Shown in pieces: positions 45,493 through 61,830 of a DNA stretch of 64,000 bases. The first letter of the stretch is position 1; each line of letters begins with the position of its first letter. The stretch comes from an uncultured Actinomycetes bacterium (GTDB lineage: Bacteria > Actinomycetota > Thermoleophilia > Gaiellales > F1-60-MAGs149). The translations under genes and the position numbers were made by a program. Below the pieces are notes generated by a model. That model searched no databases and was not told the origin of the DNA. It saw only the letters and a program-made list of their open reading frames with translations. The DNA lies in contig CAVZZG010000003.1 in the NCBI GenBank assembly GCA_963779685.1, forward strand, positions 44,950 through 108,949, written 5' to 3'.

Positions 45493-45613
45493 TCGACGTG
45501 ACGGCGTAGGAGCCGCGGATCGGGAAGCGCGCCCGGCACTTTTGCGGGAAACCCGCACACTTGCGCGGCCTCACTGCTTCACAACGACCGGCCGACCTGT
45601 TATTACCCAGTAC

Positions 45614-46455: not shown

Positions 46456-47124
46456 TCAGGCGGCGTCGGTCATCTGGCGCCGAAGCGGTGAGAGCACGGC
46501 CCACAGCTCGTAGGACGAGACCACGCGGCGGCTGCGATCGCCGAGTGGAGGCCCGCCCGCGAACAGCGGTGGCCACACGCTGATGCCCTGATCGGCGTTG
46601 AGCTGCAGCATGTGGGCCTCCCAGCCCGGCCAGCGGAGCCGCTCGTAGAAGCCGCCCAGCTCGGTCGTGATCATCCACTGCAGCCAGGTCGAGTAGCTCA
46701 GGCCGAGGTCCTGCCACTCGAGCGTGTCGGGCGCGAGGTAGTACACGTTGCCGGCGCCGACGTCGCCAAGGCCACCGCCGTTGATGGCGAAGAACCCGCC
46801 GACGGCGTCGTGGGCGACGACGATGGCACGATCGAGCGGCTCGAAGTCGTCGGACGGCGTGTTCCAGGCCAGCAGGCCGTAGCGGATGCGCGGGCCGCCG
46901 GCGCCGAGGATCCGCAGCCAGCCGCCCTCCAGCAGGAGCCCCCCGCAGTGCGTGACGAAGGCTCCGAGCAGGGACCGCGGCGTCAGTTCCAGCGCCTGGA
47001 GCGTCTGGTGGATGCTCACGAGATCGGGGCCGAGGACGCGACAGTCGGGAGACTTGTCGATCCAGGCCTCGATTGCGGGCCATGCGTCGTCTGGTTGGTC
47101 CATCCCATCGCAGCATGCACCCAT
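46456..47124 (-). CDS. DUF2625-family protein
   Basis: ..VVAHDAVGGFFAINGG..GNVYYLAPDTLEWQDLGLSYSTWLQWM..FYERLRWPGWE..DQGISVWPPL.. matches my recollection of the DUF2625 family. The start is the ATG at 47124 or 47103. The rest of ORF 46456..47466 is antisense to the next gene. Confidence 0.68.
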   Translation of the reverse strand: MGACCDGMDQPDDAWPAIEAWIDKSPDCRVLGPDLVSIHQTLQALELTPRSLLGAFVTHCGGLLLEGGWLRILGAGGPRIRYGLLAWNTPSDDFEPLDRAIVVAHDAVGGFFAINGGGLGDVGAGNVYYLAPDTLEWQDLGLSYSTWLQWMITTELGGFYERLRWPGWEAHMLQLNADQGISVWPPLFAGGPPLGDRSRRVVSSYELWAVLSPLRRQMTDAA

Positions 47125-47178
47125 CCGGCGAATTCTGCTGCCTCGATCCCACCCGCGCGGGAGCGATACGCTGCATCT

Positions 47179-47475
47179 GTGAAGCGAGGCCTCATGATCG
47201 CGCTGTTCGCCGCACTCCTCGCGGGTGCGCTGGGCAACATCGTCGAACGGGCCGTGTACGGCGCCACCGAGAGCGAGCGGCAGCGGGCCGCGGCCCTCGC
47301 CGACGCCCAGCGCAACGGTGACGCCGTGGCCGCCGAGCGCGTGCTGGCCGCGAACGCCGTCGACGTCGGCCCGCGCGAGATGGCGTTCACGATGCTGCCG
47401 TTCATCCTGGTGCTCGGCGGCTACGCCGGGTACGTCGTGGTCACTCGGCGCAGGTCGGAGCAGCATCCGGCGTGA
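47179..47475 (+). CDS. Hypothetical small membrane protein (2 TM segments)
   Basis: The tail of ORF 46612..47475 has GTG at 47179 or ATG at 47194. It has hydrophobic N- and C-terminal helices. Confidence 0.45.
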   Translation: MKRGLMIALFAALLAGALGNIVERAVYGATESERQRAAALADAQRNGDAVAAERVLAANAVDVGPREMAFTMLPFILVLGGYAGYVVVTRRRSEQHPA

Positions 47476-47624
47476 CGGTGCTGTTCGCGGTGCTGACCGC
47501 CGGCCTGGCCGCGATCGCGGTTGCCGCCGCGCGGGCGCATGCGTGGGTCGTCGCGATCGGCGCCGGCGCCCTCGCGGGTTTCATGGCGACCTTCGTGCGA
47601 GCGACTCTGCGACGCCGAAGATGA
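47472..47624 (+). CDS. Possible 50-aa two-helix membrane peptide (below the ORF-track cutoff)
   Basis: VTVLFAVLTAGLAAIAVAAARAHAWVVAIGAGALAGFMATFVRATLRRRR*. The GTG overlaps the previous stop (GTGA) and its stop overlaps the xerC ATG (ATGA). Confidence 0.35.
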   Translation: MTVLFAVLTAGLAAIAVAAARAHAWVVAIGAGALAGFMATFVRATLRRRR

Positions 47625-48526
47625 GTCTGCGTCCCGGCGGCGAACGTCCTGGTGTGGCGGACGACGTGAGCTGGTATCTGGAGGGCGCCCGGGCGAACGG
47701 GATCGCTCCGGCGACGGTGCGCAGCTACGGCACCGACCTGCGCGCCTACGTGCGGTGGCTCGCCGAGCGCGACCGCACGCCGGCCTCGGCGACCCGCGCT
47801 GACGTCCGCGCCTACGCCGCCTCGCTTGCCGCCCGCGACCTCGCAGCATCGAGTCGCGCGCGAGCCCTGTCCGCGATCCGCGGCCTGCACCGCCGGCTGC
47901 ACGATGCCGGCCGCGCCCCGCGCGACCCGGCCGCCGAGCTGCGAGGGCCGCGACGACCCCGCCGCCTCCCCGCGGCGCCCGGCGTCGCCGACGTCGCCCG
48001 GTTGCTCGACGCCCCGTGGCCGGAAGGCCCGCTCCCGCTCCGTGACCGTGCGCTGCTCGAGCTCCTCTACGGTTGCGGTCTGCGGGTTGCCGAGGTGTGC
48101 GCGCTCGACCTCGGCGACGTCACGGCCCGCGAGGTGCGGATCCACGGCAAGGGCGCGCGGGTGCGCATCGTCCCGATCGGCGCCGCGGCAGCCGCGGCGA
48201 CCGCCGCCTGGGCGGCGCGTGGCCGTCCGCAGGTCGCGCGGCCGGAGTCCGGCCGTGCCCTGCTGCTGAGCACCCGTGGACGCCGCATCGAGGTGACCAC
48301 CGCCCGCCGCGTCCTCGCCCGGCGAGCCGCCGCAGTCGGCCTCGACCACCTCCATCCGCATGCGCTGCGCCACGCCTACGCCACCCACCTGCTGGAGGGT
48401 GGTGGGGATCTGCGAGCAATCCAGGAACTTCTGGGGCATGCTTCGTTAGCCACCACCGAGATCTACACCCGGGTCACGGTGGGGCATCTCCGTCAAGCCC
48501 ACGCCCTCGCGCATCCACGAAATTGA
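47621..48526 (+). CDS. xerC: Tyrosine recombinase XerC/XerD
   Basis: An N-terminal SAM-like domain is followed by catalytic residues R (GLRVAE), HxxR (HALRHAYATHLL), H and Y (LGHASLATTEIYTRV). It lies in a dprA...xerC-whiG neighbourhood. Confidence 0.9.
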   Translation: MSLRPGGERPGVADDVSWYLEGARANGIAPATVRSYGTDLRAYVRWLAERDRTPASATRADVRAYAASLAARDLAASSRARALSAIRGLHRRLHDAGRAPRDPAAELRGPRRPRRLPAAPGVADVARLLDAPWPEGPLPLRDRALLELLYGCGLRVAEVCALDLGDVTAREVRIHGKGARVRIVPIGAAAAAATAAWAARGRPQVARPESGRALLLSTRGRRIEVTTARRVLARRAAAVGLDHLHPHALRHAYATHLLEGGGDLRAIQELLGHASLATTEIYTRVTVGHLRQAHALAHPRN

Positions 48527-49302
48527 TGGCCCAAAGCAAGGTCGCAATCGAGGATATCTGGCAGAAGTACAGCGAAACGCGCGACAAGGCGCTTCGCGAT
48601 CGCCTGATCCTGAACTACGCCCCCCTCGTCAAGTACGTGGCGAGCCGGCTCGGCACGAGCCTGCCTGCCCACGTCGACGAGGGTGATCTCGTGTCCTACG
48701 GCCTGCTCGGCCTGATCGGCGCCATCGAGCGCTACGACCCCGACCGCGAGATCAAGTTCGAGACCTACGCGATCTCGCGGATCAAGGGCTCGATCATCGA
48801 CGAGCTCCGCTCGCTCGACTGGGTGCCGAGGTCGGTCCGTTCGCGGGCCCGCGAGATCGAGCGCGCCATGCTCGAGCTCGAGAACCGGCTCAAGCGCCCG
48901 CCGTCGGACGAGGAGGTCGCTGCCGAGATCGGGATCTCGGTCGACGACTTCCAGGACTCGCTCACGGCCATCTCCCGCTCGTCGGTCGCCGCGCTGGACG
49001 AGCTCTGGCAGATCTCCACCGGCGGCGGCGACACCGTCAGCCTCATCGACACGATCGAGGATCCCAACGCCGAGGATCCCACGCGCAAGATCGCCCAGTC
49101 CGAGGTGAAGGAGGCGCTGGCGGACGCCATCCAGCGGCTCCCCGAACGAGAGCGCCTCGTGATCACGCTCTACTACTACGAGGAGCTCACGCTCCGCGAG
49201 ATCGGCGAGGTGCTGCACGTCACCGAGTCGCGCGTCTCGCAGCTGCACACGAAGGCGATCCTGCGCCTGAAGGTGCGCCTTCAGGGCAACCTCAACCGTT
49301 GA
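48526..49302 (+). CDS. whiG: FliA/WhiG-family (sigma-28 type) RNA polymerase sigma factor
   Basis: Region 2 is ..LVSYGLLGLIGAIERYDP..FETYAISRIKGSIIDELR. Region 4 is LYYYEELTLREIGEVLHVTESRVSQLHTKAILRL. The ATG overlaps the xerC stop by 1 nt. Confidence 0.9.
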   Translation: MAQSKVAIEDIWQKYSETRDKALRDRLILNYAPLVKYVASRLGTSLPAHVDEGDLVSYGLLGLIGAIERYDPDREIKFETYAISRIKGSIIDELRSLDWVPRSVRSRAREIERAMLELENRLKRPPSDEEVAAEIGISVDDFQDSLTAISRSSVAALDELWQISTGGGDTVSLIDTIEDPNAEDPTRKIAQSEVKEALADAIQRLPERERLVITLYYYEELTLREIGEVLHVTESRVSQLHTKAILRLKVRLQGNLNR

Positions 49303-49931
49303 CGACCCGGCTCGCGGGGTTCGCCGGTCGCGTCGGCTCCGTCTCGGTGTTCACGCTCCTCGCGGTGCTGCAGGCGGATGCCGCCCGCGGCACGGTCCAG
49401 AGCTCGGCCCGCGTCTTCCACGCCCTGACTGCCTGCCTGTGGCTCCTGTTTGCGTGGGCCGCCCTCCGCCGCGCAACCCCTGTGAAGCGCGGACCGGTGC
49501 TCGGCGCCGCCGTGGGGTTCGCGTCGATCCCGGCGGCCGTCGCGCTCTCCCTGGCCGGCTCGGACGCGGCGGCCGCGCCGTGGCGGATCGCCACGGCGGA
49601 CGTGCTGCTCGCCGTCGGCCTTTCCTGGGCGCTCGTCTCGGCGGCCTGGCTGGGTCGGTGTTTCGGGGTGTTCCCGGACGCCCGAGGGCTGGTCACCACC
49701 GGGCCGTATGCGGTCGTGCGCCATCCGCTGTACCTGGGCGAGCTGACGGGCATGGCCGGCGTCGTGCTCTGCTCGACGCGTTCGGTCGTCGCGCTGGGAG
49801 CCTTCGCCGTCCTGGTCGCCATCGACCTCGCCCGCACGGTGTACGAGGAGCAGACGCTGCGGTCGGCGTTCCCGGACTACGACGACTACGCCCGCCGTGT
49901 CCGCTTCCGGATCGTCCCGGGTGCCCTCTAG
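49299..49931 (+). CDS. Isoprenylcysteine carboxyl methyltransferase (ICMT/PEMT) family membrane protein
   Basis: It is multi-TM and has the C-terminal motif LVTTGPYAVVRHPLYLGE...EEQTLRSAFPDY. The TTG overlaps the whiG stop. Confidence 0.8.
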   Translation: MTTRLAGFAGRVGSVSVFTLLAVLQADAARGTVQSSARVFHALTACLWLLFAWAALRRATPVKRGPVLGAAVGFASIPAAVALSLAGSDAAAAPWRIATADVLLAVGLSWALVSAAWLGRCFGVFPDARGLVTTGPYAVVRHPLYLGELTGMAGVVLCSTRSVVALGAFAVLVAIDLARTVYEEQTLRSAFPDYDDYARRVRFRIVPGAL

Positions 49932-49947: not shown

Positions 49948-50629
49948 TCAGGTGAGCGACACGTCGGTCGTCTCGCGCATCTCCTCGAAGTAGGCCACGG
50001 CAGCGGCGCGCGTGTGCACTTCGAGTTTGCGCAGGATGGCCTTGACGTGCGATCTCACGGTCTCGATCGACACCACGAGCTCTGCCGCGATCTCGCCGGT
50101 GCGGAGACCGCCGGCCAGCATGCCCAGGATCTGCCACTCACGGTGGGTCAGGTGCGCGCCCCGTGCTCGGCGGTGCTCGGCGCGCCTCGCCGCCACCCGC
50201 TGGTACTCGTGCACCAGGAGCGAGGTCATGCGGCGCGAGAGCGGAGCCTCGCCCTGGGCGGCGGCGGCTAGCGTCTCGCCCAGCCGCGATGCCGCCATGT
50301 CCTTCGTCAGGTAGCCGTCGACGCCGCTGCGGAGCGCGCGGAACAGGTCGGCCGGCTTCTCCGACGAGGTCAGGACCACGATCCGGGCATCGTCGTTGAG
50401 CGATCGCAGCTCGACGCCGAGATCGAGTCCATCGCCGTCCCGCAGGTAGATGTCGAGCAGCACCAGGTCGAACTCGAGCCGCGGCGCGAGTGCCCGGGCC
50501 ACCGGCACACGAGCCGGCCTCGCCGGCGATCCGGAAGCCATCCTCGGTGAGGATGTCGACCAGGCCGCGGCGGGTCAGCTCGTGGCCTTCGACGATCAGA
50601 ATCCGCAGGGGTTTTCCGTCATAACCCAA
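49948..50629 (-). pseudogene. NarL/LuxR-family response regulator RR-1, with a +1 frameshift near 50503 (possibly a sequence error)
   Basis: The N-terminus MGYDGKPLRILIVEGHELTRRGLVDILTEDGFRIAGEAGSCA is in one frame (ORF 50138..50629). ..VARALAPRLEFDLVLLDIYLRDGDG..LuxR HTH is in the next frame (ORF 49948..50541). An extra G lies in gtgccGgtgg. RBS GAGGA precedes the TTG start. Confidence 0.8.
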
Positions 50630-51067: not shown

Positions 51068-51739
51068 CTAAGTGGTCGCGAGCACGCCGTCGGCGTCGTC
51101 GAGCCGCGCGATGGCGGCGGCCCGGGTGTGGACGCCGAGCTTGCGCAGGACCGCCTTGATGTGCGACCGCACCGTCTCGGTCGAGACGACGAGCTCGCCG
51201 GCGATGTCCACCGTGCGCTTGCCGTCGGCCAGCATGCACAGCACCTGCCACTCGCGCAGCGTGAGGCGGGCGCGGACGGCGCTCGCCCGCTGCCCGTGGG
51301 CCTGGTTGAGCCGCTGGTACTCCTGGACGAGCTGCGCGGTCATGCGCCGGGAGAGCGGCGCCTCGCCGCGGGCGGCGGCACGCAGGGTCTTGACCAGGCG
51401 CCCGGGGGGCATGTTGCGCCCGAGGTAGCCGTCCACGCCCCGTCGCAGCGCGCGGAAGAGGTCGGTCGGCCGCTCGGTCGTGGTCAGGACCACGACCTTG
51501 GCGTCGGGGTTCTCACGCCGTAGCTCGGCGGCCAGGTCGATGCCGTCGCCGTCGTCGAGGTCGTGGTCGACCAGGGCCAGGTCGTACCGCGCGACCCTGG
51601 GCACGAGCGCGCGCGCCGCCGCGCACGATCCCGCCTCCGCGACCACGCGAAACCCGGCCTGCGTGAGCACGCCGGCGAGGCCGGCGCGGGACGGTCGTTG
51701 ATCCTCGATCAGAAAGATCCGCAGGGGCGCCTGGGACAC
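51068..51739 (-). CDS. NarL/LuxR-family response regulator RR-2 (paralog of RR-1)
   Basis: The GTG at 51739 is preceded by GAGGAGGG. The receiver has the acceptor Asp in LALVDHDLDDGDG, followed by a LuxR HTH (LTLREWQVLCMLADGKRTVDIAGELVVSTETVRSHIKAVLRKL). Confidence 0.88.
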   Translation of the reverse strand: MSQAPLRIFLIEDQRPSRAGLAGVLTQAGFRVVAEAGSCAAARALVPRVARYDLALVDHDLDDGDGIDLAAELRRENPDAKVVVLTTTERPTDLFRALRRGVDGYLGRNMPPGRLVKTLRAAARGEAPLSRRMTAQLVQEYQRLNQAHGQRASAVRARLTLREWQVLCMLADGKRTVDIAGELVVSTETVRSHIKAVLRKLGVHTRAAAIARLDDADGVLATT

Positions 51740-51915
51740 TTCGCCCTCCTCGGTGGTCGTGCTCGTTCGCAACCGCACCCGCGGCGCGGGGATGCGCCGG
51801 CACGCTGGGGAGGGGCGGATGCTTCGCACCGGTGTATCACGGGTCGTCGCGCGCCGCAACCGCCGGATCCGGTCGGCCGGCCATTCCTGTGCGAGAATCC
51901 GTCCGGGAGAACCGC

Positions 51916-52212
51916 ATGGCACCCGACCTGACACCGCAGATCCTGATCGCCGTGGCCGGCCCGGCCGTGCTGCTCGTCTGGGTGGTCGTCCATCACTACC
52001 AGCCGTCCGGATTGCGTTCGCTCGTGCTGCACCTCGTCGGCGGGCTCGTGCTCACGGCGCCGCTGGCCGGAGTGCTCATGGGCGCTGCCAAGGGGCTCCC
52101 GGGATTGCTGCATCCGCTCGTCGTGCTGTCGCTCGGCCAGATCGCGATCGCCTACCTCTTGCTGGTGGGCTACTGGGTCCTGCGAGCCGGCGTCGGCGCC
52201 GTCATCCGCTGA
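51916..52212 (+). CDS. Hypothetical small membrane protein (3 TM segments)
   Basis: The ATG at 51916 lies within ORF 51832..52212. The 98-aa product is very hydrophobic and the gene is divergent from RR-2. It is followed by an 8-bp GC hairpin at 52232-52255. Confidence 0.45.
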   Translation: MAPDLTPQILIAVAGPAVLLVWVVVHHYQPSGLRSLVLHLVGGLVLTAPLAGVLMGAAKGLPGLLHPLVVLSLGQIAIAYLLLVGYWVLRAGVGAVIR

Positions 52213-52310: not shown

Positions 52311-53210
52311 TCACTTCAACGCGTTGTTGAGGAGTTCGTCGTAGATCCGGAATGCCGCCGGCCCGAGAACGATCAGGAGCAGCGAGGGCAGGATCAGGAA
52401 GAACGCCACCAGCACGATCTTCACTGGCGCCTTCTGCGCTCGTTCCTCGGCCGCCTGACGGCGCCGGAGTCGCATGTCGATGGCCAGGTTCTTGAGGATC
52501 TGCGCCAGCGGCACGCCGAGCGTCTGGCCCTGCACGAGCGACTGCGCGAACACCTTCAGGTTGCGGCTGTCGACGCGGTCGACGACGTGCTGGACGGCCT
52601 CGTTCCGTGCGACGCCCATGCGGATCTCCTGGAGCATCAGGCTGAACTCCTCGCGCAGTGGACCGGCCATGCGTCCGATCGCAGCCTGGGTGGCGGCCTC
52701 GAACCCGAGGCCGGCCTCGACGGTGATCGCGATCAACTCGATGAAATCGGGGACGTCGTGGTCGAAGGTCGCCGCGCGGTGCCGGATGCGACGGTTGAGC
52801 ACGAACTCCGGCAGCCGGAAGGCGACGATGATCGAGATGCCGACCAGCGCGATGTCGAGAAGCGTGTGGCTCTGGGCGAGCACGGCCGCCCCGGCGATGG
52901 CCGCCACGACCGGCAGCCCGTAGCGGAACAGGAGGATGCCCTCGGGCGTCGCGTTGAAGATGCCGGCGCGGACGAACTGCTGGCGGACGCGGGCCTCGTA
53001 GCCGCTCGGTGAGATCCGCTGCAGGAACCTGTGCGCCATGGACGCATCGGCGCTCGTCGCGGGAGCGGCCCGTCCGGCGATCGTCCCGTAGCCGTAGTCG
53101 TCGAGCCGTCTCACCGACGCGCCCACCGTCATGCGGGGCAGGGCGATGGCCCAGAGGAGGGCGGCGATGGCGAACCCGGTGAGGAGGAAGAAGATGGTGT
53201 AGAGCAGCAT
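52311..53210 (-). CDS. tadC: Tad pilus platform protein TadC (T2SS-F family)
   Basis: A T2SS-F domain (..DFIELIAITVEAGLGFEAA..) lies between TM segments. It is the last gene of the tad operon. The hairpin at 52296-52314 overlaps its stop. Confidence 0.9.
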   Translation of the reverse strand: MLLYTIFFLLTGFAIAALLWAIALPRMTVGASVRRLDDYGYGTIAGRAAPATSADASMAHRFLQRISPSGYEARVRQQFVRAGIFNATPEGILLFRYGLPVVAAIAGAAVLAQSHTLLDIALVGISIIVAFRLPEFVLNRRIRHRAATFDHDVPDFIELIAITVEAGLGFEAATQAAIGRMAGPLREEFSLMLQEIRMGVARNEAVQHVVDRVDSRNLKVFAQSLVQGQTLGVPLAQILKNLAIDMRLRRRQAAEERAQKAPVKIVLVAFFLILPSLLLIVLGPAAFRIYDELLNNALK

Positions 53211-53222
53211 GGCGGGCTCCGA

Positions 53223-55052
53223 TCAGAGGTCGATGCGCACGATGCGGGAGATCAGGAATGCGCCGAGTGCGGTCATGGCGGCGGCGGAGCCGAGCAGGAT
53301 CTGGCCGGCGGTGCGGTCGAGCAGCTCGTGCATCAGGTCGGGGTTGGCGAGGTACAGGAAGGCGCCCATGCCGATGGGCAGGATGATCAGGATGATCATC
53401 GTCATGCGGCCCTGTGCGGTGAGCGACTGCACCTCGCGCTGGAGCCGCTGGCGCTCGAGCACCGACGCGGCCACCGAGTCGAGGATCTCGGCCATGTTCC
53501 CGCCGATCCGCGACTGGATGGCCACCACGGCGATCACCCAGTCGAGGTCGCGCGACCGCATCCTCACGCCGAGCTCGTCCATGGCGAGGTCCAGGTTGCC
53601 GCCGAGGCGGGTCTGGGAGATGACGCGGCGGAACTCCGACTTCGACGGCTCGGCCGCGTTGTCGGCGACCGAGTCGATCGCCTGCTGCAGCGAGAAGCCG
53701 GCTCGCAACGACTGCGAGAGGATCGCCAGGTTGTCCGGCAGCTGGTCCTGGAACGCCTTCATCCGCTGGGCCGCGCGGTGCTGCACCGACATCCAGGCGA
53801 TGAGGGGCACGAGCAGCCCGAAGAGGATCGCCCACGGGTTTCGCAGCACGACTGCGAGGACGAGGCCGACGAGCGTGCCCCCGGCGCATGCCAGGTAGAC
53901 GAGCTGGCTCGGCCGGATCGGGATGTCGGCCCGGTCGAGCTCGAGCGACAGGCGCTGCGCCCATGCCACGTCCTTCAGCCGCTTGTCGGTGCGGTCGAGA
54001 AGGTCGTCGAGGAACAGCGACTGTCGCGCCTCGTGGGCCTCGGCAGTCATGTGGTACTCGGAGACCCGGTCGGCCATCGACATCCGTCGCGTGCGGGCGA
54101 ACAGCAGTGCGATGGTCAGCACGGCCAGGGCGACGATGCCGGCGACGGCTGCGACCACCCACGACTCCTGCCAGAAGGCCGTCCGACGCCCGATCACCGG
54201 CGCCGGCGGCAGGCTGTAGTTGGCCGCCGCCGGGGCGAAGCCCGGCGCGCTGATGAGGGCGTGCCCCGCGGCGCCCGGCGCCGTCAGGTTCGACGTGAAG
54301 GAGACCTCGTAGAGGGTGGTCAGCGACGCCGTCAGGGATCGCCCCAGGGCCTCGAGGCGCTGTGCGTCCGGCGCCTGGCTGTAGGTCCCACCGGTGCGTG
54401 CGGCCACGCCGCGCAGTGCGTTCGGGTCGAACGCGTGCGAGGCCAGGCCGATCGTGAAGACCCGGACGTCGGCCGTGGAGGCGGCGGCTGCCACCGTGTC
54501 GAGCGTGGCCTTCGATCCGTTGTCGCTGCCGTCGGACATGACGACGATCACGCGCGATTGCGCGGGCTGATGCGACACGTCGGTGATCACGCGCCCGAGC
54601 GCGTCGTACAGCTGCGTGCCGCCGCCGGTGGTGACGGTTGCGAGCGCGGCGGTCTGGGCCGCGGCGGTGGCGCCGAACGGCGCCACGACGGCGACCTCGT
54701 TGTTGAAGCGGTAGACCGCGCTGCGGACGTTGGGCGGGTTGTCTGCGACCAGCGACCGGGCCGTGGCGAGGGCGGCCTTGAGCGGTGCGCCGGCCATCGA
54801 GGAGGAGGCGTCGATGAGGAGCGCCATGGCGACCGGGTCGGCGGACGTGCTGACGCTGACGCCGTGGATCGGCTCGCCGTTCTCGGTGACCTGGATCTCG
54901 TTCGGGTTCAGGGTGCGCCCGGTGGCGGCGATCAGCCACGTCTGCTCGGCTCCGTTGCCCGAGATCTGGCGGACGGTCACGAGCGAGTCGGCCACCGCGG
55001 CCGGCACCGCCAGCGAGAGGACGACGATCGCGATCAGGCAGCGGCGGATCAT
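53223..55052 (-). CDS. tadB: vWA-domain::TadB fusion (secreted von Willebrand A module fused to a T2SS-F platform protein)
   Basis: A signal peptide is followed by a vWA domain with an intact MIDAS (LIDASSSM, GGGTQLYDA, MSDGSDN), a TM segment, then a TadB-like T2SS-F domain (..LPDNLAILSQSLRAGFSLQQAI..) with C-terminal TM helices. 609 aa. Confidence 0.85.
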   Translation of the reverse strand: MIRRCLIAIVVLSLAVPAAVADSLVTVRQISGNGAEQTWLIAATGRTLNPNEIQVTENGEPIHGVSVSTSADPVAMALLIDASSSMAGAPLKAALATARSLVADNPPNVRSAVYRFNNEVAVVAPFGATAAAQTAALATVTTGGGTQLYDALGRVITDVSHQPAQSRVIVVMSDGSDNGSKATLDTVAAAASTADVRVFTIGLASHAFDPNALRGVAARTGGTYSQAPDAQRLEALGRSLTASLTTLYEVSFTSNLTAPGAAGHALISAPGFAPAAANYSLPPAPVIGRRTAFWQESWVVAAVAGIVALAVLTIALLFARTRRMSMADRVSEYHMTAEAHEARQSLFLDDLLDRTDKRLKDVAWAQRLSLELDRADIPIRPSQLVYLACAGGTLVGLVLAVVLRNPWAILFGLLVPLIAWMSVQHRAAQRMKAFQDQLPDNLAILSQSLRAGFSLQQAIDSVADNAAEPSKSEFRRVISQTRLGGNLDLAMDELGVRMRSRDLDWVIAVVAIQSRIGGNMAEILDSVAASVLERQRLQREVQSLTAQGRMTMIILIILPIGMGAFLYLANPDLMHELLDRTAGQILLGSAAAMTALGAFLISRIVRIDL

Positions 55053-56395
55053 CGGAGGCTCCTCGTCTTCGTCGCCGGAGCCGCGAAGAGTGCAGCCGGG
55101 ATGTCGACGCCGTGCCGGGCGAACTTCGCCGAGAGCGCGGGCCGGAGCCCCGTCGGTACGAGCCCGCCGCGCTCGGCGTGGACGGTGCTGCGCGGATCGA
55201 GCTTGTAGACGAACAGGTCCTGGAGGGTGACGGCGTCGCCCTCCATGTGGAGGACCTCCGTCACCTGGGTGATCTTCCGCGAGCCGTCGTCCATGCGGTC
55301 GAGGTGCACCACGAGATCGAGGGCTGCGCAGATCTGCTCGCGGATCGCCTTGTGCGGCAGGCTGAACCCGGCCATCAGCACCATCGTCTCCAGCCGGCTC
55401 ATGGCGTCGCGGGGCGAGTTGCAGTGGATGGTCGACAGCGACCCGTCGTGGCCGGTGTTCATGGCCTGGAGCATGTCCAGCGCCTCGGCGCCGCGGACCT
55501 CGCCCACGATGATGCGGTCGGGCCGCATGCGCAGGGCGTTGCGTACCAGGTCGCGGATCGTGATCTGACCCTTGCCCTCGATGTTGGGCGGGCGGGACTC
55601 CAGGCGCACGACGTGGCGCTGGCTCAGCTGGAGCTCGGCCGCATCCTCGATCGTGACGATCCGCTCCGTCGACGGCACGAAGCTCGACACGACGTTCAGG
55701 AGCGTCGTCTTGCCGGCACCGGTGCCGCCGGACACGAGCAGGTTCAGCTTGGCGTGGACGCAGCGCGAGAGGAAGTCCTCGAGGCCCGGCGTGAGGGTGC
55801 CGAGGGCGACGAGATCGTCGGAGGTGAAGCGCTTGCGGGCGAACTTGCGGATCGTCAGCGTGGGCCCGCCGATCACCAGGGGATGGACGATGGCGTTGAC
55901 GCGCGACCCGTCCGGCAGGCGGGCGTCGACCATCGGCGACACCTCGTCGACGCGGCGGCCGACGGTGGCGACGATCTTGTCGATGATCCGCCGCAGGTGG
56001 GCGGCGTCGTTGAAGTGGGCGTCCGTCTCGTAGAGCAGGCCGGCCCGCTCGATGTAGATCTGGGACGGGTCGTTGACCATGATCTCGGTGACCGTCTCGT
56101 CCTCGAGGAACGGCTCGAGTGGCCCGTAGCCGATGATCTCGTCCGTGATCTCGCGGATCAGGCGGTCGCGATCGGGCCGCGAGAGCGGGTCGCTGGCGTG
56201 CGCGAGCGCCGCGGTGACGGCGTCACGCACGCTGCGGCTGAACTCGGGGCCCTTGAGATCGTCGCTCGACAGGCGTGGGCCGAGCGTCGCGATGACCTCG
56301 CGGTGGATGGTCGTCTTGAGCTCCGTGAACGGGTCGGGCCCGCTGACGGGTAGTGCGGGGCCGCCGTTGGCGGCAAGCCGGTCGGTCAGGGACAT
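55049..56395 (-). CDS. cpaF: Tad pilus secretion ATPase TadA/CpaF
   Basis: Walker [10 protein letters not shown], an Asp box, Walker [10 protein letters not shown] and a His box ([10 protein letters not shown]). The ATG at 56395 is preceded by GGGGAGG. The longer ORF extending to 56530 is an R-rich extension. Confidence 0.95.
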
Positions 56396-56396
56396 C

Positions 56397-57602
56397 TCAC
56401 GACCTCCCCATGAGTCGTGCCAGGTTGTGGTGGGACGACGGCGTCGCGTGGGCCGCGGCAACCGCCTTGCGAAGCTCGTGGATGGCCTTCGACACGCCGT
56501 TGCGGCGGTTCTTGACGACGAGCGGCGCACCCTCGTTGTACGACCGCGGTACGGCGGCGTCGTACGGGATCACGACGTCGACCTTCCGGCCGAGCGCCTC
56601 GGAGGCGCGGGCGACGGCGAGGCCGCCCTTGGAGCTGGCGCGGTTGACGACCACGCGCACGTCGTCGCGTCCGCGGCCCATCAGCTCGAGCGTGTCGAGC
56701 CCCAGCCGGGCGTCCTTCAGGCTCGGGACGTCCATGGAGGCGAGCAGCACGACCTCGTCGGCACCGTCGACCGTCGCGATGACGACCGGCGAGAAGGCCG
56801 GTGCGGAGTCGACCACGATGAACTCGTACAGCCGACGGGCGACGGCGAACACTCCGGCGATGCGTTCCGCCGTCACGGCGTCCGCCTGGTCGGGCCGGGT
56901 GGGTCCGATCAGGACGTCGAGGCCGCTTGCCGCGTGCTGGGTGACGTAGCCGGCGAGCTTCTCCTCGTCGAGCATCCCGGGGCCGTTGACGAGGTCGTAG
57001 ATGGTGCGCTCGGGCGAGAGTCCGAGCACGATGGCGCAGTCGCCGAACTCGAGATCGAGGTCGATGAGCAGGGTGTGCCGGCCCTCGGCGGCCAGTGCGC
57101 AGCCGAGGTTGGTCGCGGTGAGCGTCTTTCCCGACCCGCCTTTCGGGCCGACGATGGCGATCAGGCGACCATCGGGCTGGCCGGCGGCTGCGGCTCGGTC
57201 GCGGCTGCGCCGCGCGCACGCCTTGTGCAACGCGAGCGCGACCTCGTCCGGCGGCTCGGAGCCGATCATGACGTCCTCGGCTCCGGCTGCGAGGGCTTCG
57301 CCGACGAAGCTTGCGGGCGCGAGTGGCGCGAGGACCACGATCGGCATGTCCGGGCGCGCGCGGCGGAGGCGTGCGACGACTGCGATCGTGCCCGTGCAGT
57401 CGCCGTCTGCAGCGACCAGGGCGGCGTCGAGCCGTTCGCGAACCGCCAGTTCCGCCGCCCGGCTCGGGCCGGGTTCGGTGAGGGTGTAGTCGATGCCGTC
57501 GACCTCGTCCGCGTACGCCGCGAGCAGGGTCGTGGCCGCGTCGTTGACGGGGAGCGCCATCACGTGGATGGTGCGCTCTGCGGCTGGCTCCGGGGTGGCC
57601 AT
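56397..57602 (-). CDS. cpaE: TadZ/CpaE-like pilus assembly ATPase (receiver-like N-domain plus ParA/MinD-like domain)
   Basis: It has the deviant Walker A GPKGGSGKT, DLDLEFGD and a MinD-like core. The N-terminal ~120 aa have a CheY-like layout. Confidence 0.85.
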   Translation of the reverse strand: MATPEPAAERTIHVMALPVNDAATTLLAAYADEVDGIDYTLTEPGPSRAAELAVRERLDAALVAADGDCTGTIAVVARLRRARPDMPIVVLAPLAPASFVGEALAAGAEDVMIGSEPPDEVALALHKACARRSRDRAAAAGQPDGRLIAIVGPKGGSGKTLTATNLGCALAAEGRHTLLIDLDLEFGDCAIVLGLSPERTIYDLVNGPGMLDEEKLAGYVTQHAASGLDVLIGPTRPDQADAVTAERIAGVFAVARRLYEFIVVDSAPAFSPVVIATVDGADEVVLLASMDVPSLKDARLGLDTLELMGRGRDDVRVVVNRASSKGGLAVARASEALGRKVDVVIPYDAAVPRSYNEGAPLVVKNRRNGVSKAIHELRKAVAAAHATPSSHHNLARLMGRS

Positions 57603-57607: not shown

Positions 57608-58507
57608 TCAGCTTCCCGACGGGGTGGACTGCGACGTCTGTCCCGCCTTCTGCACGGACTGCGGGCTGATGACCTGGAAGCCCTTCAGACCGGCGATCAT
57701 CGACTCGAGCGTCGTGACGGTGGAGCGGCTCGAGCTGTCGCGCCAGGAGTCGGTCGGCCGCTCGCCCCGCAGGGTCAGCCAGATCTTGCCGTTCTCGAGC
57801 GCGAAGACGAGCTTCTGCGCGTCGGCGTCCGTGATCGAGAGCGTGGCGTACAGCGGCACGCCCGACGAGGTGCCGGTGTTCCCGGATCCGGTGTTGCTGG
57901 CGGTCGAGCTGGTGTTGGTGTCGTTCTGCGAGATCGACAGCACCTCGATGCCGCGCAGCAGCGTGACCGTCATCGGCTCGGGCTGTCCGTAGGCGGTCGG
58001 CGAAGGCTTCTTGGTGGCGGGGTCGATCGCCACCGGGGTGACCATGAAGGTCGCGACCACATCGACCCAGTCGTTGGCTTTCAGCGTGCCGACGAGTCCG
58101 CGGCTCGTGTCGACGGGCACCTGGACGGCGCGGTAGTTGCCCTTCACCGTCAGCGCGGTCAGGTTGTTCGGCGCCTCGGGAAACTGGGAGGCGACCAGGA
58201 ACTGGCCCTGGGCGATCGCTGTTGCGGCGACCGTACCCTTCAGCCGGTTGAGGTCGACGATGGCCGAGTCCGGCATGCCGGACTTGCTGATCTTGATGGC
58301 CGAGTAGCTGCTGTCACTCAGCACCTTGTCACCGGAGGTGCCGGCCGGGATCGCCTTTGCGGCGACGTAGGCCGTCACCGTGTCCGCCCGCTTGTCCACG
58401 GCCGATCGGTAGCGTGAGACGTAGAGGACGACTGCGGCCGCGGCGCCCACCGCGAGGACGAGCGCCACCATCATGGTGGCGAAGCGAGAGCTGAAGATGC
58501 GAGACAT
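57608..58507 (-). CDS. cpaB: Flp pilus assembly protein CpaB/RcpC (SAF domain)
   Basis: The ATG at 58507 is preceded by GGAGGA. It has an N-terminal TM anchor, a SAF-like region (..IPAGT..) and a Ser/Thr/Asn-rich linker. Confidence 0.83.
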   Translation of the reverse strand: MSRIFSSRFATMMVALVLAVGAAAAVVLYVSRYRSAVDKRADTVTAYVAAKAIPAGTSGDKVLSDSSYSAIKISKSGMPDSAIVDLNRLKGTVAATAIAQGQFLVASQFPEAPNNLTALTVKGNYRAVQVPVDTSRGLVGTLKANDWVDVVATFMVTPVAIDPATKKPSPTAYGQPEPMTVTLLRGIEVLSISQNDTNTSSTASNTGSGNTGTSSGVPLYATLSITDADAQKLVFALENGKIWLTLRGERPTDSWRDSSSRSTVTTLESMIAGLKGFQVISPQSVQKAGQTSQSTPSGS

Positions 58508-58539: not shown

Positions 58540-59037
58540 CTACGGCTTGGTCACGCAGACGTCGCCGCCGGTCGCGCCGCCCGGCAGGTTGGAGCCCTGC
58601 TGTTCGACGCGCATGACGCTCGTGCCGGTGAGGGTCAGGGTCGGGCCGTGGCCGATGGCGGCGCCGAGCGCCGTCACCCACCGGTAGTCGTACGTGACCC
58701 GGACTCGCACCGCAGAGCCGATATCGAGATTCCCGTCGAGGGCGCGGATGCAGATCCGCGATCCGCTGGGCGCGAGCGTGCAGGCGGCGCCGAGCCAGTT
58801 GTTGGCCGAGGTGCAGCTGCCATTCGAGCCGGAGCTGTTGACGGCGGCCTGGCGCGCTCCGTCGCGGGCCGCCTCGGTGACGTCGTTCTTGGTGAACATG
58901 ATGACGCCGAACTCGAGGATCCCGACGAGGAGGAGCACGAAGACGCTGAGCGTGAGCGCGAACTCGACAAGCGCCACGCCGCGCTGCGGCTGACGCTGGT
59001 TGCTCGGGGTATGAGGGCGTGTGCGGGTCATCGGCAT
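58540..59037 (-). CDS. tadE: TadE-like pseudopilin
   Basis: RGVALVEFALTLSVFVLLLVGILEFG is the TadE/TadF N-terminal motif. 165 aa. Confidence 0.8.
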   Translation of the reverse strand: MPMTRTRPHTPSNQRQPQRGVALVEFALTLSVFVLLLVGILEFGVIMFTKNDVTEAARDGARQAAVNSSGSNGSCTSANNWLGAACTLAPSGSRICIRALDGNLDIGSAVRVRVTYDYRWVTALGAAIGHGPTLTLTGTSVMRVEQQGSNLPGGATGGDVCVTKP

Positions 59038-59083: not shown

Positions 59084-59242
59084 TCAGAGCGACCCCGTGA
59101 TGCTGGTGAGGACGCCGGTGATCGAGGTGCCGAGCGTGCGAAGAGCGACGACGCATGCCACGGCGACGAGGACCAGGATCAGGCCGTACTCGGCGAGGGT
59201 CTGGCCCTCCTGCCTGCGCAGGTGGGTGAGGATGTCGTCCAT
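59084..59242 (-). CDS. flp: Flp-family type IVb pilin (52 aa; below the ORF-track cutoff)
   Basis: Hand translation gives MDDILTHLRRQEGQTLAEYGLILVLVAVACVVALRTLGTSITGVLTSITGSL*. It has the Flp motif G/QTxxEYGLI plus a hydrophobic helix. RBS GGGAG is 6 nt upstream. Confidence 0.85.
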   Translation of the reverse strand: MDDILTHLRRQEGQTLAEYGLILVLVAVACVVALRTLGTSITGVLTSITGSL

Positions 59243-59244
59243 GG

Positions 59245-59718
59245 TCACTCCCTTGTCCGCCCCGGAGGCGCCGCCGGAATGGCGGTGCGGCCGATGGGGC
59301 TCCCCGGCCGCGGTTGATCGGTGAGGTCGTCCCCGGCCCTTGGCCGACGGAGCGGATGGAGCAGTTCGAGGAGTCCCTCGATGCTCGGGTTGAACGTGGC
59401 GTTCAACTCCTGCGAGATCGCGTGCTCCATGCTTTCGTCGCGGCCGTAGCCGAGGACGACGAGCTCGGTACCGGCGTCCGCCAGGCGGCTTCCGGTCTCG
59501 ATGGCGAGCTGGAGATCATGCGAGGCGGTCAGGTCGATCACCGCGAGCTGCGGTGTCGCCCAGGCTCGTGTATCGCTCAGCGGGCACGAGCCCACGTCGG
59601 CGTGGCTGCCGAGGGCGAGCTCCAGGCAGTGCCGGGGGATCGCCCCGACACCCGCCAGCAGCACGTACGGGCGGCCCGTCTCGATGCCGTGTCGCGTGGT
59701 CTCCATGTCGTCCATCAT
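59245..59718 (-). CDS. Hypothetical protein with a weak receiver-like (pseudo-receiver) pattern
   Basis: 157-aa ORF with coding-like GC3 over the first ~120 codons. It shows a beta/alpha alternation (YVLLAGV, LAVIDL, ELVVLGYG) but lacks the acidic pocket and the conserved Lys. The tail is low complexity. Confidence 0.45.
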   Translation of the reverse strand: MMDDMETTRHGIETGRPYVLLAGVGAIPRHCLELALGSHADVGSCPLSDTRAWATPQLAVIDLTASHDLQLAIETGSRLADAGTELVVLGYGRDESMEHAISQELNATFNPSIEGLLELLHPLRRPRAGDDLTDQPRPGSPIGRTAIPAAPPGRTRE

Positions 59719-59876: not shown

Positions 59877-61421
59877 CTACCGCACCAGCCGGACGCCGCC
59901 CTGGGTGATCAGGTGGCCGATCTGGTTGAAGATGTCGTAGAGCTGGCCGGGGGTCGGCTGGTTGAAGAAGTAGGTGTCGTTCGACGCCATCATGCGCACG
60001 GTCGTGCCCGAGCTGATGGCCGGGCTCTCGCCCGCCAGCGGCAGGCCCAGGGCGCCGTTCGAGTATCGCTCGGGGTTGAACCCGCCAGCACCCGAGGCAT
60101 CGCCCTTGCACCGCTGGCCGTCGTTCGCGAAGCCGAAGTCGAGCGCGTAGCCGATCGAGAACCAGGTGATCCCGCGGGAGGCGGCGTAGGGCGCCCTGCC
60201 TCCCCAACCACCGGGCCCGTGGACGGCGTCGTTGTCGACGTTGTTGGACACCGACGAGCCGCACGGGTGCTGCTTGTCGAAGGTGGACTTGAGGGCGCTG
60301 GCCGCGTTCAGCCCCGTCCAGTTGTTCCACTGGTTCGCGCCGCCATCACCGAGCATGACCACGATGCGCCGGCAGTTCGCGCAGGTGCGTCCATGCAGCG
60401 CCAGCTCGGCGTCCGCCGCCCGGGCGGCCTCGTTGATGACGGTGTTGCCCTCGCCCGGCACGCAGCGGATCGCCGACACCAGGCGCGACGTGTCGATCAG
60501 CGCATTGGTAGCCGGGTTCACCCACTGCCAGGTCGCATCGAGCGGTGTTCCGAGCGGGCGCAGCGGCACGAGCAGCCAGTTGCCGTTCACCCCCGCGGTC
60601 GGGTTGCCCGGATAGGCGGTGGTGTTCGAGCTTCCGGTCGCGCAGTAGTTCGAGCCGAGCGGGTTGGCAGCGTTGTACGCCGGCGCGACGGGGCTCGAGG
60701 TACTTCCGCCGGGATTGAATCCCGAGAGGACGACGAAGCCGACCCGGTCGTAATGCCCCTGGGAGTCGGGGACCGGGTTGAAGAACTTGATGAAGCTGAG
60801 GATGCCGTTCTTGGCGTTGGCCAGATCGGACGGCGGGTTGTAGGTGAGGACGTTGCAGTTCGGCACCGTCGCCCCGGAGGCGTTCTGGCACATCGACCCG
60901 GTGCGGTCGAGCACGATCATCACGTCGAAGTCGACCTCGTCCGTGGAACACGGACTGCAGGCCGCGGCCATCGCGTGCGGGTTGAACGCATCGAAGTTCT
61001 GCCCGACCATCCTCCCGAACGCCTTCGCGAACGTGTTCTCCGACCGTATCGAGTGATCCTTGACCTCGAAGTAGTCGAACCGCGGCGCGCAGCTCGACTT
61101 GTCGGACGCGCCGGTCGGCATGCAGCCGTAGTCGAACGTGAACCCGGCGGCGTCGTAGCCGTTCAGCTGCAGGTACTGGCGGGCCACCTCCTGCGCCGTC
61201 TTCACACACCCGAAGCCCGACGGCGGGCTGACTCCCTCGAGGCACGGCAGGAACGCACCGCCCGCAAGCGCTGCGCCGTCCTCGGCCGCCTGCAGGTCGC
61301 GCTTCTTCCAGTACGCGCTGCCCACGTCGATCGCGATACCCGCGAGTCCGAGGAACACCACCAGGCTCAGCGCGAACCATGTCAGGTAGAACCCGCCCTG
61401 TCGGCGCCGCGAAGCTTTCAT
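59877..61421 (-). CDS. tadG: TadG-like pilus-associated protein with a vWA domain
   Basis: The ATG at 61421 is preceded by GGGAG. The N-terminus ..GGFYLTWFALSLVVFLGLAGIAIDVGSAYWKKRDLQAAEDGAALAG is the TadG/Flp-pilus-assembly motif. The vWA MIDAS is VLDRTGSM and it is Cys-rich. 514 aa. Confidence 0.8.
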   Translation of the reverse strand: MKASRRRQGGFYLTWFALSLVVFLGLAGIAIDVGSAYWKKRDLQAAEDGAALAGGAFLPCLEGVSPPSGFGCVKTAQEVARQYLQLNGYDAAGFTFDYGCMPTGASDKSSCAPRFDYFEVKDHSIRSENTFAKAFGRMVGQNFDAFNPHAMAAACSPCSTDEVDFDVMIVLDRTGSMCQNASGATVPNCNVLTYNPPSDLANAKNGILSFIKFFNPVPDSQGHYDRVGFVVLSGFNPGGSTSSPVAPAYNAANPLGSNYCATGSSNTTAYPGNPTAGVNGNWLLVPLRPLGTPLDATWQWVNPATNALIDTSRLVSAIRCVPGEGNTVINEAARAADAELALHGRTCANCRRIVVMLGDGGANQWNNWTGLNAASALKSTFDKQHPCGSSVSNNVDNDAVHGPGGWGGRAPYAASRGITWFSIGYALDFGFANDGQRCKGDASGAGGFNPERYSNGALGLPLAGESPAISSGTTVRMMASNDTYFFNQPTPGQLYDIFNQIGHLITQGGVRLVR

Positions 61422-61513
61422 GACTCCCTGATGATCCGCCCGCCCGGCCACGGAACCGATGCCCTCGGTGGGTGAGCCGTGGGGGACTTGCGGGGGATAT
61501 CGGCCGCGGCGTA

Positions 61514-61787
61514 CGTCCAAGTGCACGAGGCGCGTCGTCCAAGTGGACGGCCTGCGCGACGAGTGGCGGTGCCAAGGAGCTGCGCCGGCGGCGTCCGGCT
61601 CTGCGAGCCGGCTGGCGACGCCTCGCCGAGCTCTCCGTCGGAGCGCTCGGCCTCGCCAGGGGAACGGCGAGCGCAGGTCGAGGTCTCGTGCACTTGGACA
61701 TGGCGCGTCGTGCACTTGGACGCTTGCCGCGCCACGGCCCGCAGGGAAGGTCGTCCACTTGGACGGTGCGCGTCGTGCAATTGGACG
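61514..61787. promoter_or_regulatory. Array of six 14-bp dyad boxes (CGTSCA-NN-TGSACG) arranged as three 36-nt two-box modules
   Basis: The boxes lie at 61514-61527, 61536-61549, 61687-61700, 61709-61722, 61752-61765 and 61774-61787. Boxes within a pair are 22 nt apart and joined by NNNGCGCG. Boxes 2 and 5 are perfect palindromes. A TACAAT -10-like hexamer at 61793 follows box 6. Confidence 0.6.
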
Positions 61788-61830
61788 CTCGGTACAATCG
61801 CCCCCACGTACCGCCTGTCAAAGGAGCGTC

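Follow-up and report, generated by a model that had tools for sequence, protein, structure and literature searches.

The locus examined here raises the question of what a folded vWA domain with a MIDAS site would be doing on TadB, a platform protein of the Tad pilus machine. Of the core parts of type IV filament machines, the platform proteins (PilC, GspF, TadB/TadC) are understood least, two questions about them being how ATPase work reaches pilins across the membrane and whether the platform rotates. To our knowledge, almost no part of the platform proteins studied so far is exposed outside the membrane. The window, the whole 64,000-nucleotide stretch of DNA that was analysed, carries a tad operon in the order tadG-like, orf157, flp, tadE, cpaB, tadZ, cpaF, vWA::tadB and tadC, in which a vWA::TadB fusion gene occupies the tadB position, between cpaF/tadA and tadC. 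The fusion gene and the assigned genes around it are listed below.

52311..53210, minus strand: tadC, a T2SSF paralogue of 299 aa (Pfam T2SSF, E 2.2e-15)
53223..55052, minus strand: vWA::TadB fusion gene, a single 609-aa ORF with an ATG start (Pfam VWA and T2SSF; full-length homologues)
55049..56530, minus strand: cpaF/tadA ATPase (Pfam T2SSE, E 3.4e-69)
56397..57602, minus strand: tadZ/cpaE-like ParA/MinD ATPase (Pfam CbiA and AAA_31)
57608..58507, minus strand: cpaB/rcpC, with the start taken at MSRIFSS (Pfam RcpC, E 1.6e-16; translation)
58540..59037, minus strand: tadE pseudopilin (Pfam TadE, E 7.3e-15)
59084..59248, minus strand: flp prepilin, ..RRQEG/QTLAEYGLIL.. (G/xxxxEY Flp motif in the translation)
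59877..61421, minus strand: tadG-like large minor pilin, 514 aa from MKASRRRQGG (Pfam Tad PF13400, E 1.5e-9)

Translation of cpaF probably begins downstream of the listed GTG, since its ORF overlaps tadZ. The synteny flp-tadE-(tadG-like)-cpaB-tadZ-cpaF-fusion-tadC recurs across loci L001-L058, with tblastn matches to flp at the corresponding position in related loci and tadC kept directly downstream of the fusion; TadC is the presumed platform partner of the fusion protein. No similarity was found between orf157 and the TadZ N-terminus, and the operon scan found no promoters or terminators. Pfam detected no Secretin domain in the operon ORFs scanned, and by its gene content the operon appears to be without secretin and outer-membrane parts. 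The host is assumed to be single-membraned, from the taxonomy of its relatives. A second vWA domain, proposed for the tadG-like protein from the sequence-only reading of this DNA, holds at the motif level: the protein has a weak Pfam VWA_2 match and its own vWA/MIDAS pattern, DRTGSM...T...DG, invariant in the family alignment, and its distant full-length homologues combine Pfam VWA, Tad_C and Tad. By the same sequence-only reading, vWA-vWA or vWA-pilin contacts may form during assembly. Its AF2 model (mean pLDDT 45) is too low in confidence for use.

The fusion is genuine and widely conserved. The gene is one continuous frame whose start overlaps the cpaF stop, as the sequence-only reading had described, with the ATG lying across the cpaF stop codon (ATGA), GAGGAG 7 nt upstream, and the tadC ATG 12 nt past the fusion-gene stop. 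Pfam places VWA (PF00092) at aa 77-235 (E 9.4e-16; 59 bits, cutoff 23.8), VWA_2, VWA_3 and VWA_CoxE likewise exceeding their own cutoffs, and T2SSF (PF00482) at aa 444-567, nt 53352..53723 (E 3e-17; 63.2 bits, cutoff 25.2), spanning profile positions 4-124 of 125. Relatives were sought with a genome scan, using a 10-sequence alignment, and with a profile search in which the best 150 representatives of 50%-identity clusters were considered. Nearly all of these 150 matched end to end (E <= 3e-158), and 135 are 580-720 aa long; among the other 15 are two-module forms of ~890 aa, truncated entries and two giant proteins with multiple vWA domains. Homologues with this two-domain architecture reach down to 29% identity, which together with the end-to-end matches puts the similarity well beyond chance. 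Relative to the window protein, identity is 30% for the ectodomain and 32% for the core, and the two, being equally diverged, evidently evolve as one unit. Named relatives are mostly Thermoleophilia, plus Micromonospora, with Paraconexibacter antarcticus 02-257 and Micromonospora pattaloongensis as cultured carriers. The fusion is already present in public databases under the generic names TadB or T2SS-F; a literature search on vWA/TadB or vWA/T2SSF platform fusions and Thermoleophilia Flp found no paper on it.

An alternative origin, in which an adjacent secreted-vWA gene and tadB were merged by a sequencing indel or misassembly, would draw on the eight of 46 related genomic loci where the two halves lie in different ORFs. 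All eight are MFD-series MAGs, which we take to be error-prone long-read assemblies; at five of them (L039, L047, L050, L056 and L030) the matches are also split in cpaF, tadZ or the ectodomain itself, and the other three (L043, L054 and L058) show truncated TadB matches only. Both halves share a single ORF at the remaining 38 loci and one frame in the 135 representatives, the identical 609-aa protein occurs on an independent Logan contig, and alignment with homologues of 43-67% identity keeps the vWA-TadB junction in frame. Relatives thus do not show two separate ORFs as a rule, and an artefact, now carrying almost no probability, was rejected.

Within the fusion protein, the features assigned are the following.

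54990..55052, minus strand: predicted Sec signal peptide, aa 1-21 (MIRR, hydrophobic core, AVA/DS)
54165..54989, minus strand: extracytoplasmic module, aa 22-296, as predicted (AF2 model; Foldseek)
54318..54833, minus strand: vWA domain, aa 74-245, Pfam match 77-235 (Pfam, AF2, Foldseek, structure-profile search)
54798..54812, minus strand: MIDAS DxSxS, D81, S83 and S85 (alignment of 135 representatives)
54615..54617, minus strand: MIDAS T146 (alignment of 135 representatives)
54531..54533, minus strand: MIDAS D174 (alignment of 135 representatives)
54099..54164, minus strand: TM1, aa 297-318 (hydropathy peak 2.89, flanking charges, AF2 helix 297-318)
53223..54164, minus strand: complete TadB module, aa 297-609 (Pfam, hydropathy, AF2)

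The proposed signal peptide is supported by eye and by hydropathy, the N-terminus reading as a charged MIRR, then CLIAIVVLSLAVPAAVA, then AVA/DS, which correspond to an n-region, an h-region and an AxA motif, with a hydropathy peak of 2.30 at aa 7-25. Leader and MIDAS counts were taken over the 135 representatives of 580-720 aa, and an N-terminal hydrophobic leader is present in 135/135. The module behind it is laid out as beta strands (22-69), the vWA domain, further beta strands (247-280) and a flexible linker (about 282-296). AF2 modelled the fusion protein with a mean pLDDT of 83 and a pTM of 0.47, the predicted domain-domain orientation being unreliable; pLDDT is about 80-95 over aa 30-280 and below 50 at aa 285-291, in the linker, which is also poorly conserved (mean top-residue frequency 0.28). 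The vWA region (pLDDT about 90) is predicted to alternate strands with helices in a Rossmann-like alpha/beta fold, and Foldseek matches to BatB, vWF A3 and integrin I domains have target TM-scores of 0.7-0.8. The best 60 of 76 profile matches to solved structures are all vWA chains, with no T2SSF chain among those 60, and a protein search with the ectodomain only returned just 3 weak generic vWA matches.

As a class, vWA/MIDAS domains are expected to bind a divalent cation and an acidic residue of the ligand, typically an acidic protein side chain. The claim of a complete vWA domain with an intact MIDAS agrees with the above-cutoff VWA match and with all three quoted motifs, LIDASSSM (D81, S83, S85), GGGTQLYD (T146) and SDGSDN (D174). 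D81 and D174 are each retained in 135/135 representatives, S83 in 132 (with T in 2 more), S85 in 128 (T in 6) and T146 in 125 (S in 3), a near-invariance that points to selection on the module.

The TadB half departs in part from its earlier description as a TM segment followed by a normal TadB: one TM does follow the ectodomain, but the whole TadB module itself comprises five hydrophobic segments, of which that TM is the first (297-318, 384-402, 406-424, 550-568 and 583-603). Such an arrangement is usual for TadB. The AF2 helices agree with these hydropathy-derived segments, and the predicted order is TM1, a cytoplasmic stretch (319-382), a TM2/3 hairpin (384-424), the T2SSF domain (425-548), TM4 (550-568) and TM5 (583-603). 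The T2SSF domain is taken as cytoplasmic, as in all platform proteins; given this, RTRR directly after TM1 (out-to-in) and the TM parity, the segment preceding TM1 should lie outside. In alignments, TM1 also coincides with the initial TM helix of plain TadB proteins, whose N-termini (uncharged tail, TM helix, RR) indicate an N-out orientation. From hydropathy, charge and TM parity, on which the topology call rests, and in line with the original proposal of an extracytoplasmic vWA domain, we infer that the vWA module sits on the outer face of the cytoplasmic membrane, with T2SSF facing the CpaF ATPase.

The opposite arrangement, with the vWA domain in the cytoplasm as a platform-bound regulator of the ArnB kind, takes its appeal from archaeal ArnB (PDB 8s05, 5a8j), which is among the best Foldseek matches and is the top one (E 1.5e-11). 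ArnB, a Sulfolobus regulator of archaellum expression, likewise sets a vWA domain beside a beta-rich domain and is tied to a type IV filament system; it is cytoplasmic, acts with the FHA protein ArnA via phosphorylation, and is encoded outside pilus loci (PMC4858521). The likeness is one of fold only. A cytoplasmic vWA domain would have to disregard the signal-peptide-like leader of every one of the 135 representatives and, by TM parity and RTRR after TM1, would leave T2SSF extracellular; on the leader, the flanking charges and the parity it was rejected as highly improbable.

The plain TadB relatives examined begin with their first TM helix at the N-terminus and have no external domain. With the TadB module as query, tblastn covers entire plain TadB genes in L040, L041 and L045, and no tblastn match to the ectodomain was found within 10 kb in these three loci or in L051 and L053. 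Gene fission was considered for the plain-TadB lineages and rejected, none being seen at these five loci. Conexibacter-type plain TadB proteins nest in the fused clade of a neighbour-joining tree, a placement that is unsupported. This nesting, together with the lack of a nearby ectodomain, implies that some lineages can dispense with the module, which cannot then count among the core assembly parts.

Three groups of known proteins frame the comparison. Aggregatibacter TadB and Caulobacter CpaG resemble aa 297-609, for which an N-out TM1, a hairpin of two TMs, a T2SSF domain in the cytoplasm and a C-terminal pair of TMs are predicted, and share the gene place between the ATPase gene and tadC; to this the fusion adds, at the N-terminus, a predicted signal peptide and a ~275-aa external beta plus vWA/MIDAS module. 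The TadB/T2SSF platform class is needed for Flp pilus assembly and binds the ATPase and TadC. In TadG/CpaL (Tad), PilY1 (T4aP) and PilB of Streptococcus sanguinis, a modular pilin (7b7p) found among the Foldseek matches, a MIDAS vWA domain is likewise grafted onto a type IV filament component. CpaL carries the same DxS/TxS/T...T...D signature, and in type IV pilus systems vWA/MIDAS modules serve to bind proteins (PMC12607857). In those proteins the vWA domain belongs to a pilin-like or tip protein, which departs from the membrane together with the fibre, whereas here it would belong to the stationary platform; the fusion protein also lacks a pilin-like N-terminus (no Pfam match to PF13400), and a separate TadG-like vWA protein is encoded in the same operon. 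The closest vWA relatives by profile are BatA/BatB-type and TIGR03436 acidobact_VWFA proteins (PDB 3ibs, 4jdu, 4rck), with a 4rck profile match at E 2.3e-22 and, for 3ibs, a target TM-score of 0.71 (rmsd 2.9). They share the motifs T.LYDA and TGG and hold the vWA domain at the membrane by TM helices, but lack any fusion to a platform of a secretion or pilus machine. Scores place the fusion outside both named families, at 60 bits for TIGR03436 (below the NCBIfam cutoff of 81.25) and 30.4 bits for VWA_BatA_Lepto (cutoff 380). Functions of the BatA/BatB-type and TIGR03436 proteins are poorly defined. The closest vWA relatives overall (BatA/BatB-like, TIGR03436, ArnB and ITIH) give no pointer to pilus-specific binding.

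The leading candidate for the function, on which we would place about an even chance, is a Tad platform protein with a tethered, external, metal-dependent docking module that binds a partner within the pilus machine. After export, the vWA module would come to lie on the outer face of the membrane, with T2SSF towards the CpaF ATPase. A flexible linker of ~15 residues joins the module to TM1, from which point the protein is an ordinary TadB. With the platform and minor-pilin geometry described elsewhere (PMC13170226), several MIDAS modules would ring the place where the pilus is primed and lengthens. The metal site of each may then engage an acidic residue on another component of the machine, the candidates being the CpaB cage and the priming complex of TadE and the TadG-like protein, and the result could be docking or alignment of the nascent fibre in an envelope without secretin-linked parts. 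Membrane tethering beneath the cell wall makes it unlikely that the module is a surface adhesin.

Two other readings keep the module outside and give it different work. It might be a trans-membrane sensor or regulator, with the vWA domain binding an environmental or wall ligand, or sensing load, and signalling via TM1 to platform and ATPase so that pilus extension and retraction are tuned. P0039, although only weakly related (E 5.7e-10), couples a similar module of beta region, vWA and TM to an FHA/YscD-type domain in the cytoplasm, an arrangement of the signalling type. Here and in L020, tadC is followed by NarL/LuxR-type response regulators, which also occur close to several related loci. 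The low pLDDT and poor conservation of the linker argue that it would transmit conformational change poorly, and we know of no signalling role for TadB. Even with the vWA domains of PilY1 and CpaL implicated in mechanosensing (PMC12607857), a sensing role is unlikely.

Slightly less probable again is a cell-wall anchor or spacer, in which the module would bind peptidoglycan-associated polymers or wall proteins, hold the machine in place within the envelope and serve as a stator replacing the secretin complex. The missing secretin and outer-membrane parts suit such a role, the ~890-aa variants with two tandem modules would extend further from the membrane, and the nearest solved relatives are membrane-anchored vWA proteins of the BatA/BatB type. 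Pfam, however, detected no recognised wall-binding domain in the fusion protein, the typical partners of MIDAS sites are acidic side chains on proteins, and plain TadB lineages of the same class do without the module. A more specific form of the docking module can be sketched, tentatively and with more doubt than the general case: a metal-dependent MIDAS collar on the outer TadB-TadC face might directly hold the minor-pilin priming complex or incoming Flp subunits, or might anchor the platform either to the wall or to the CpaB cage.

A large conserved family with a predicted folded, external, metal-dependent binding domain offers a natural handle on the platform question, and the partner of the ectodomain would show what adjoins the platform beyond the membrane. 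Models of rotation, too, have to accommodate a bulky domain on a tether. If the collar is true, this would be the first known platform protein to touch its substrate or stator across the membrane, and a collar fixed to a static partner would argue against free platform rotation in these machines. The family also illustrates how single-membrane Actinomycetota may have elaborated a secretin-less Tad machine.

The vWA::tadB gene lies in a window of ~70% G+C and is a single minus-strand ORF with an ATG start and a GAGGAG motif 7 nt upstream of it. Pfam VWA (PF00092) matches the product at aa 77-235 (E 9.4e-16), with VWA_2, VWA_3 and VWA_CoxE likewise exceeding their own cutoffs, and T2SSF (PF00482) matches at aa 444-567 (E 3e-17). 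The metal-site residues named in the sequence-only reading are all found, comprising D81-A-S83-S-S85, T146 in GGGTQLYD and D174 in SDGSDN. The start overlaps the cpaF stop as proposed: the ATG and the stop of that ATPase gene share ATGA, and tadC starts 12 nt past the fusion stop. The 609-aa ORF, two Pfam domains, MIDAS residues and ATGA overlap bear out the earlier description of the gene, which left its minus strand unmentioned, and by its domain matches the product is a TadB/T2SSF family member with a bona fide vWA/MIDAS domain. The minus-strand operon order, from tadG-like to the two response regulators, and the flanking genes are as follows.

61459..63897, plus: EF-G-like gene with all five EF-G domains, diverging from the tadG-like gene
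59877..61421, minus: tadG-like, Pfam Tad (PF13400) and a weak VWA_2 match
59245..59718, minus: orf157, 157 aa, between the tadG-like gene and flp, its stop overlapping the flp start
59084..59248, minus: flp prepilin (..RRQEG/QTLAEYGLIL..)
58540..59037, minus: tadE, operon member
57608..58507, minus: cpaB/rcpC, operon member
56397..57602, minus: tadZ/cpaE, operon member
55049..56530, minus: cpaF/tadA, ATPase gene directly upstream of the fusion
53223..55052, minus: vWA::tadB, 609 aa
52311..53210, minus: tadC, directly downstream of the fusion
51068..51934 and 49948..50541, minus: two NarL/LuxR-type response regulators (Response_reg and GerE), directly downstream of tadC
49299..49931: PEMT/ICMT methyltransferase, near the tyrosine recombinase
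47225..49302, plus: tyrosine recombinase (Phage_integrase and SAM-like N-terminal domain), then an overlapping sigma-70 family factor (regions 2, 3, 4)
46456..47466, minus: DUF2625 protein, near the tyrosine recombinase
44702..46438: c-type cytochrome, two matched stretches, near the tyrosine recombinase
38221..38293, plus: tRNA gene; Rfam matches nothing else in the window at its gathering threshold

No secretin domain was detected among the operon ORFs scanned. The orf157 product has no Pfam or NCBIfam match and no similarity to the TadZ N-terminus; its pattern VLLAG...AVIDL...LVVLG is receiver-like in look. In L020, an uncultured Thermoleophilia MAG, tadC is likewise followed by a response-regulator homologue, and such a homologue is also encoded close to the tad loci of L002, L005, L046, L050 and L055; the regulator downstream of tadC may be dedicated to the pilus operon. 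The flanking recombinase, sigma factor, methyltransferase and EF-G-like genes are unrelated to the pilus. In the EF-G-like ORF as listed, the GTPase domain does not begin until aa 131; the gene probably starts much further in.

Searching 5.8 billion proteins by word index returned 37 clusters with the VWA+T2SSF architecture, at identities down to 29%, under source names such as 'tight adherence protein B', 'Flp pilus assembly protein TadB/Mg-chelatase subunit ChlD' and 'type II secretion system F family protein [Micromonospora pattaloongensis]'. A profile built from 29 such sequences was run on the representatives of 50%-identity clusters (1.84 billion), and its best 150 matches (E <= 3e-158) were nearly all 610-650 aa and aligned end to end. 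Lengths of 580-720 aa were found for 135 of these; among the other 15 are two-module proteins of ~890 aa, truncated entries and two giant proteins with multiple vWA domains. Among 59 related loci gathered from one-genome-per-species contigs, five are cut by a contig end and eight carry true plain TadB genes. Separate ORFs in relatives, the outcome weighed against the fusion in the sequence-only reading, were not the rule: ectodomain (aa 22-296) and TadB core (aa 297-609) share one ORF in 38 of the 59, and lie in different frames in eight, all from MFD-series MAGs. Matches to cpaF, tadZ or the ectodomain are split too in L039, L047, L050, L056 and L030, and L043, L054 and L058 have truncated TadB matches only; we read these eight as assembly indels, assuming that MFD-series MAGs derive from error-prone long reads. 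The identical 609-aa protein is present in an independent short-read assembly, and the junction (aa ~280-300) is in frame in the alignment with homologues of 43-67% identity. Artefactual joining of two genes was rejected on the strength of the one-ORF loci, the independent assembly and the in-frame junction.

Hydropathy and flanking charges gave the following segment layout of the fusion protein.

aa 1-21: leader, MIRR and CLIAIVVLSLAVPAAVA, AVA/DS
aa 22-296: hydrophilic module
aa 297-318: TM1, then RTRR
aa 319-382: cytoplasmic stretch
aa 384-402 and 406-424: TM2/TM3 hairpin
aa 425-548: T2SSF domain
aa 550-568: TM4
aa 583-603: TM5

On the assumption that the T2SSF domain faces the cytoplasmic ATPase, as it does in all platform proteins, the TM parity places the segment preceding TM1 outside. 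Together with the flanking charges and the leader, this gives good support to the extracytoplasmic placement proposed earlier, with the vWA module tethered to TM1 by ~15 flexible residues. In plain TadB relatives a short tail without charge precedes a TM helix that RR/RRN follows, which is the same first helix in N-out orientation, so addition of a signal peptide and domain at the TadB N-terminus is topologically simple. The AF2 model (mean pLDDT 83, pTM 0.47, domain orientation unreliable) predicts an alternating strand-helix vWA at 74-245 (pLDDT about 90) flanked by beta strands 22-69 and 247-280, followed by a low-confidence linker (285-291) and the helical TadB body. Foldseek against the PDB gave target TM-scores of 0.71 for BatB (3ibs) and 0.7-0.8 for vWF A3 and integrin I domains, with longer alignments to ArnB, a Catenulispora vWA protein (4fx5), ITIH1 and the S. 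sanguinis vWA pilin PilB. The best solved relative by sequence profile is the membrane-spanning vWA protein 4rck (E 2.3e-22).

Named loci almost all belong to class Thermoleophilia, including Gaiellaceae, Solirubrobacteraceae, Thermoleophilaceae and the cultured Paraconexibacter antarcticus 02-257, whose gene is intact (leader MMGRSRRRLLAGAFIAVGMVPSVASA/AP; MIDAS DTSLT...GT...SDG); a Micromonospora group also carries the fusion. Among the genome loci, L020 comes nearest to the window gene (55% identity over the core), which puts the source organism probably within or close to Thermoleophilia. The conserved gene order is flp-tadE-(large tadG-like, PF13400)-cpaB-tadZ-cpaF-fusion-tadC. All 135 representatives of 580-720 aa keep D81 and D174 and have an N-terminal hydrophobic leader; S or T stands at positions 83 and 85 in 134 each, and at position 146 in 128. 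Divergence from the window protein is equal for ectodomain and core (30% and 32% identity). The conserved MIDAS, universal leader and equal divergence of both halves mark the fusion, at the sequence level, as old and evolving as one unit, with purifying selection on the metal site.

The sequences of P0071 and P0076 (family members of ~890 aa) contain two tandem beta + vWA/MIDAS modules before the TadB core, and P0091 and P0094, of similar length and matched over two stretches, are probably two-module as well. In a neighbour-joining tree of cores, without support values and indicative only, the Conexibacter-type plain TadB proteins (L040, L041, L042, L044, L045, L051, L053) nest in the fused clade; this placement, and the lack of a separate ectodomain gene within 10 kb of these loci, suggests secondary loss of the ectodomain. 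Such apparent loss in some lineages argues that the module is accessory, not essential. The Conexibacter-type loci with a TadE match (L041, L044, L051 and L053) also lack the ~2-kb tadG-like gene that separates tadE from cpaB in most fused loci. In the Thermoleophilia MAG locus L056 a second, separate ectodomain-like vWA module (785-1513) lies ~8.5 kb upstream of the tad locus. The metagenomic protein P0039 (539 aa) joins a similar external beta + vWA module and a single TM helix to a cytoplasmic FHA / Yop-YscD_cpl region, not TadB, and the module thus appears portable between transmembrane contexts.

The second vWA that had been assigned to the tadG-like protein stands: DRTGSM...G.T...DG is invariant in its alignment with homologues, and distant full-length homologues carry Pfam VWA, Tad_C and Tad. 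On these matches, a canonical vWA minor pilin of TadG/CpaL type (predicted structure of low confidence, pLDDT 45) is encoded in the operon besides the platform vWA, which is no replacement for it. Lacking both PF13400 and a pilin-like N-terminus, the fusion protein itself falls outside the TadG/CpaL-type pilins, and it scores below the cutoffs of both TIGR03436 (NCBIfam) and BatA. In the papers covered, the vWA-bearing type IV filament proteins CpaL, TadG, PilY1 and S. sanguinis PilB are ones that leave with the fibre, whereas here the vWA sits on the platform.

By analogy, several MIDAS modules would ring the site of fibre priming. In this machine without a secretin complex, the metal site of each would engage an acidic residue on another machine component, with the CpaB cage and the TadE/TadG-like priming complex as candidates. 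We put about even weight on this metal-dependent docking or alignment role. A direct adhesin role is disfavoured: assuming a Gram-positive envelope, a domain of such size tethered to the membrane would probably not extend through the wall to outside surfaces. The FHA linkage in P0039 and the response regulators adjoining the operon would fit a sensor tuning the platform, which we consider unlikely, and the two-module variants and kinship to BatA/B-like proteins would fit a wall anchor or spacer, which we regard as rather improbable.

Full-text literature searches turned up no publication about a vWA-TadB fusion, and no description of vWA on the platform of a type IV filament machine was found in the literature searched; fusion sequences are abundant in public databases under generic names. 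The vWA-TadB fusion is real, conserved and uncharacterised, and it offers a handle on the platform's contacts across the membrane and on the rotation question.
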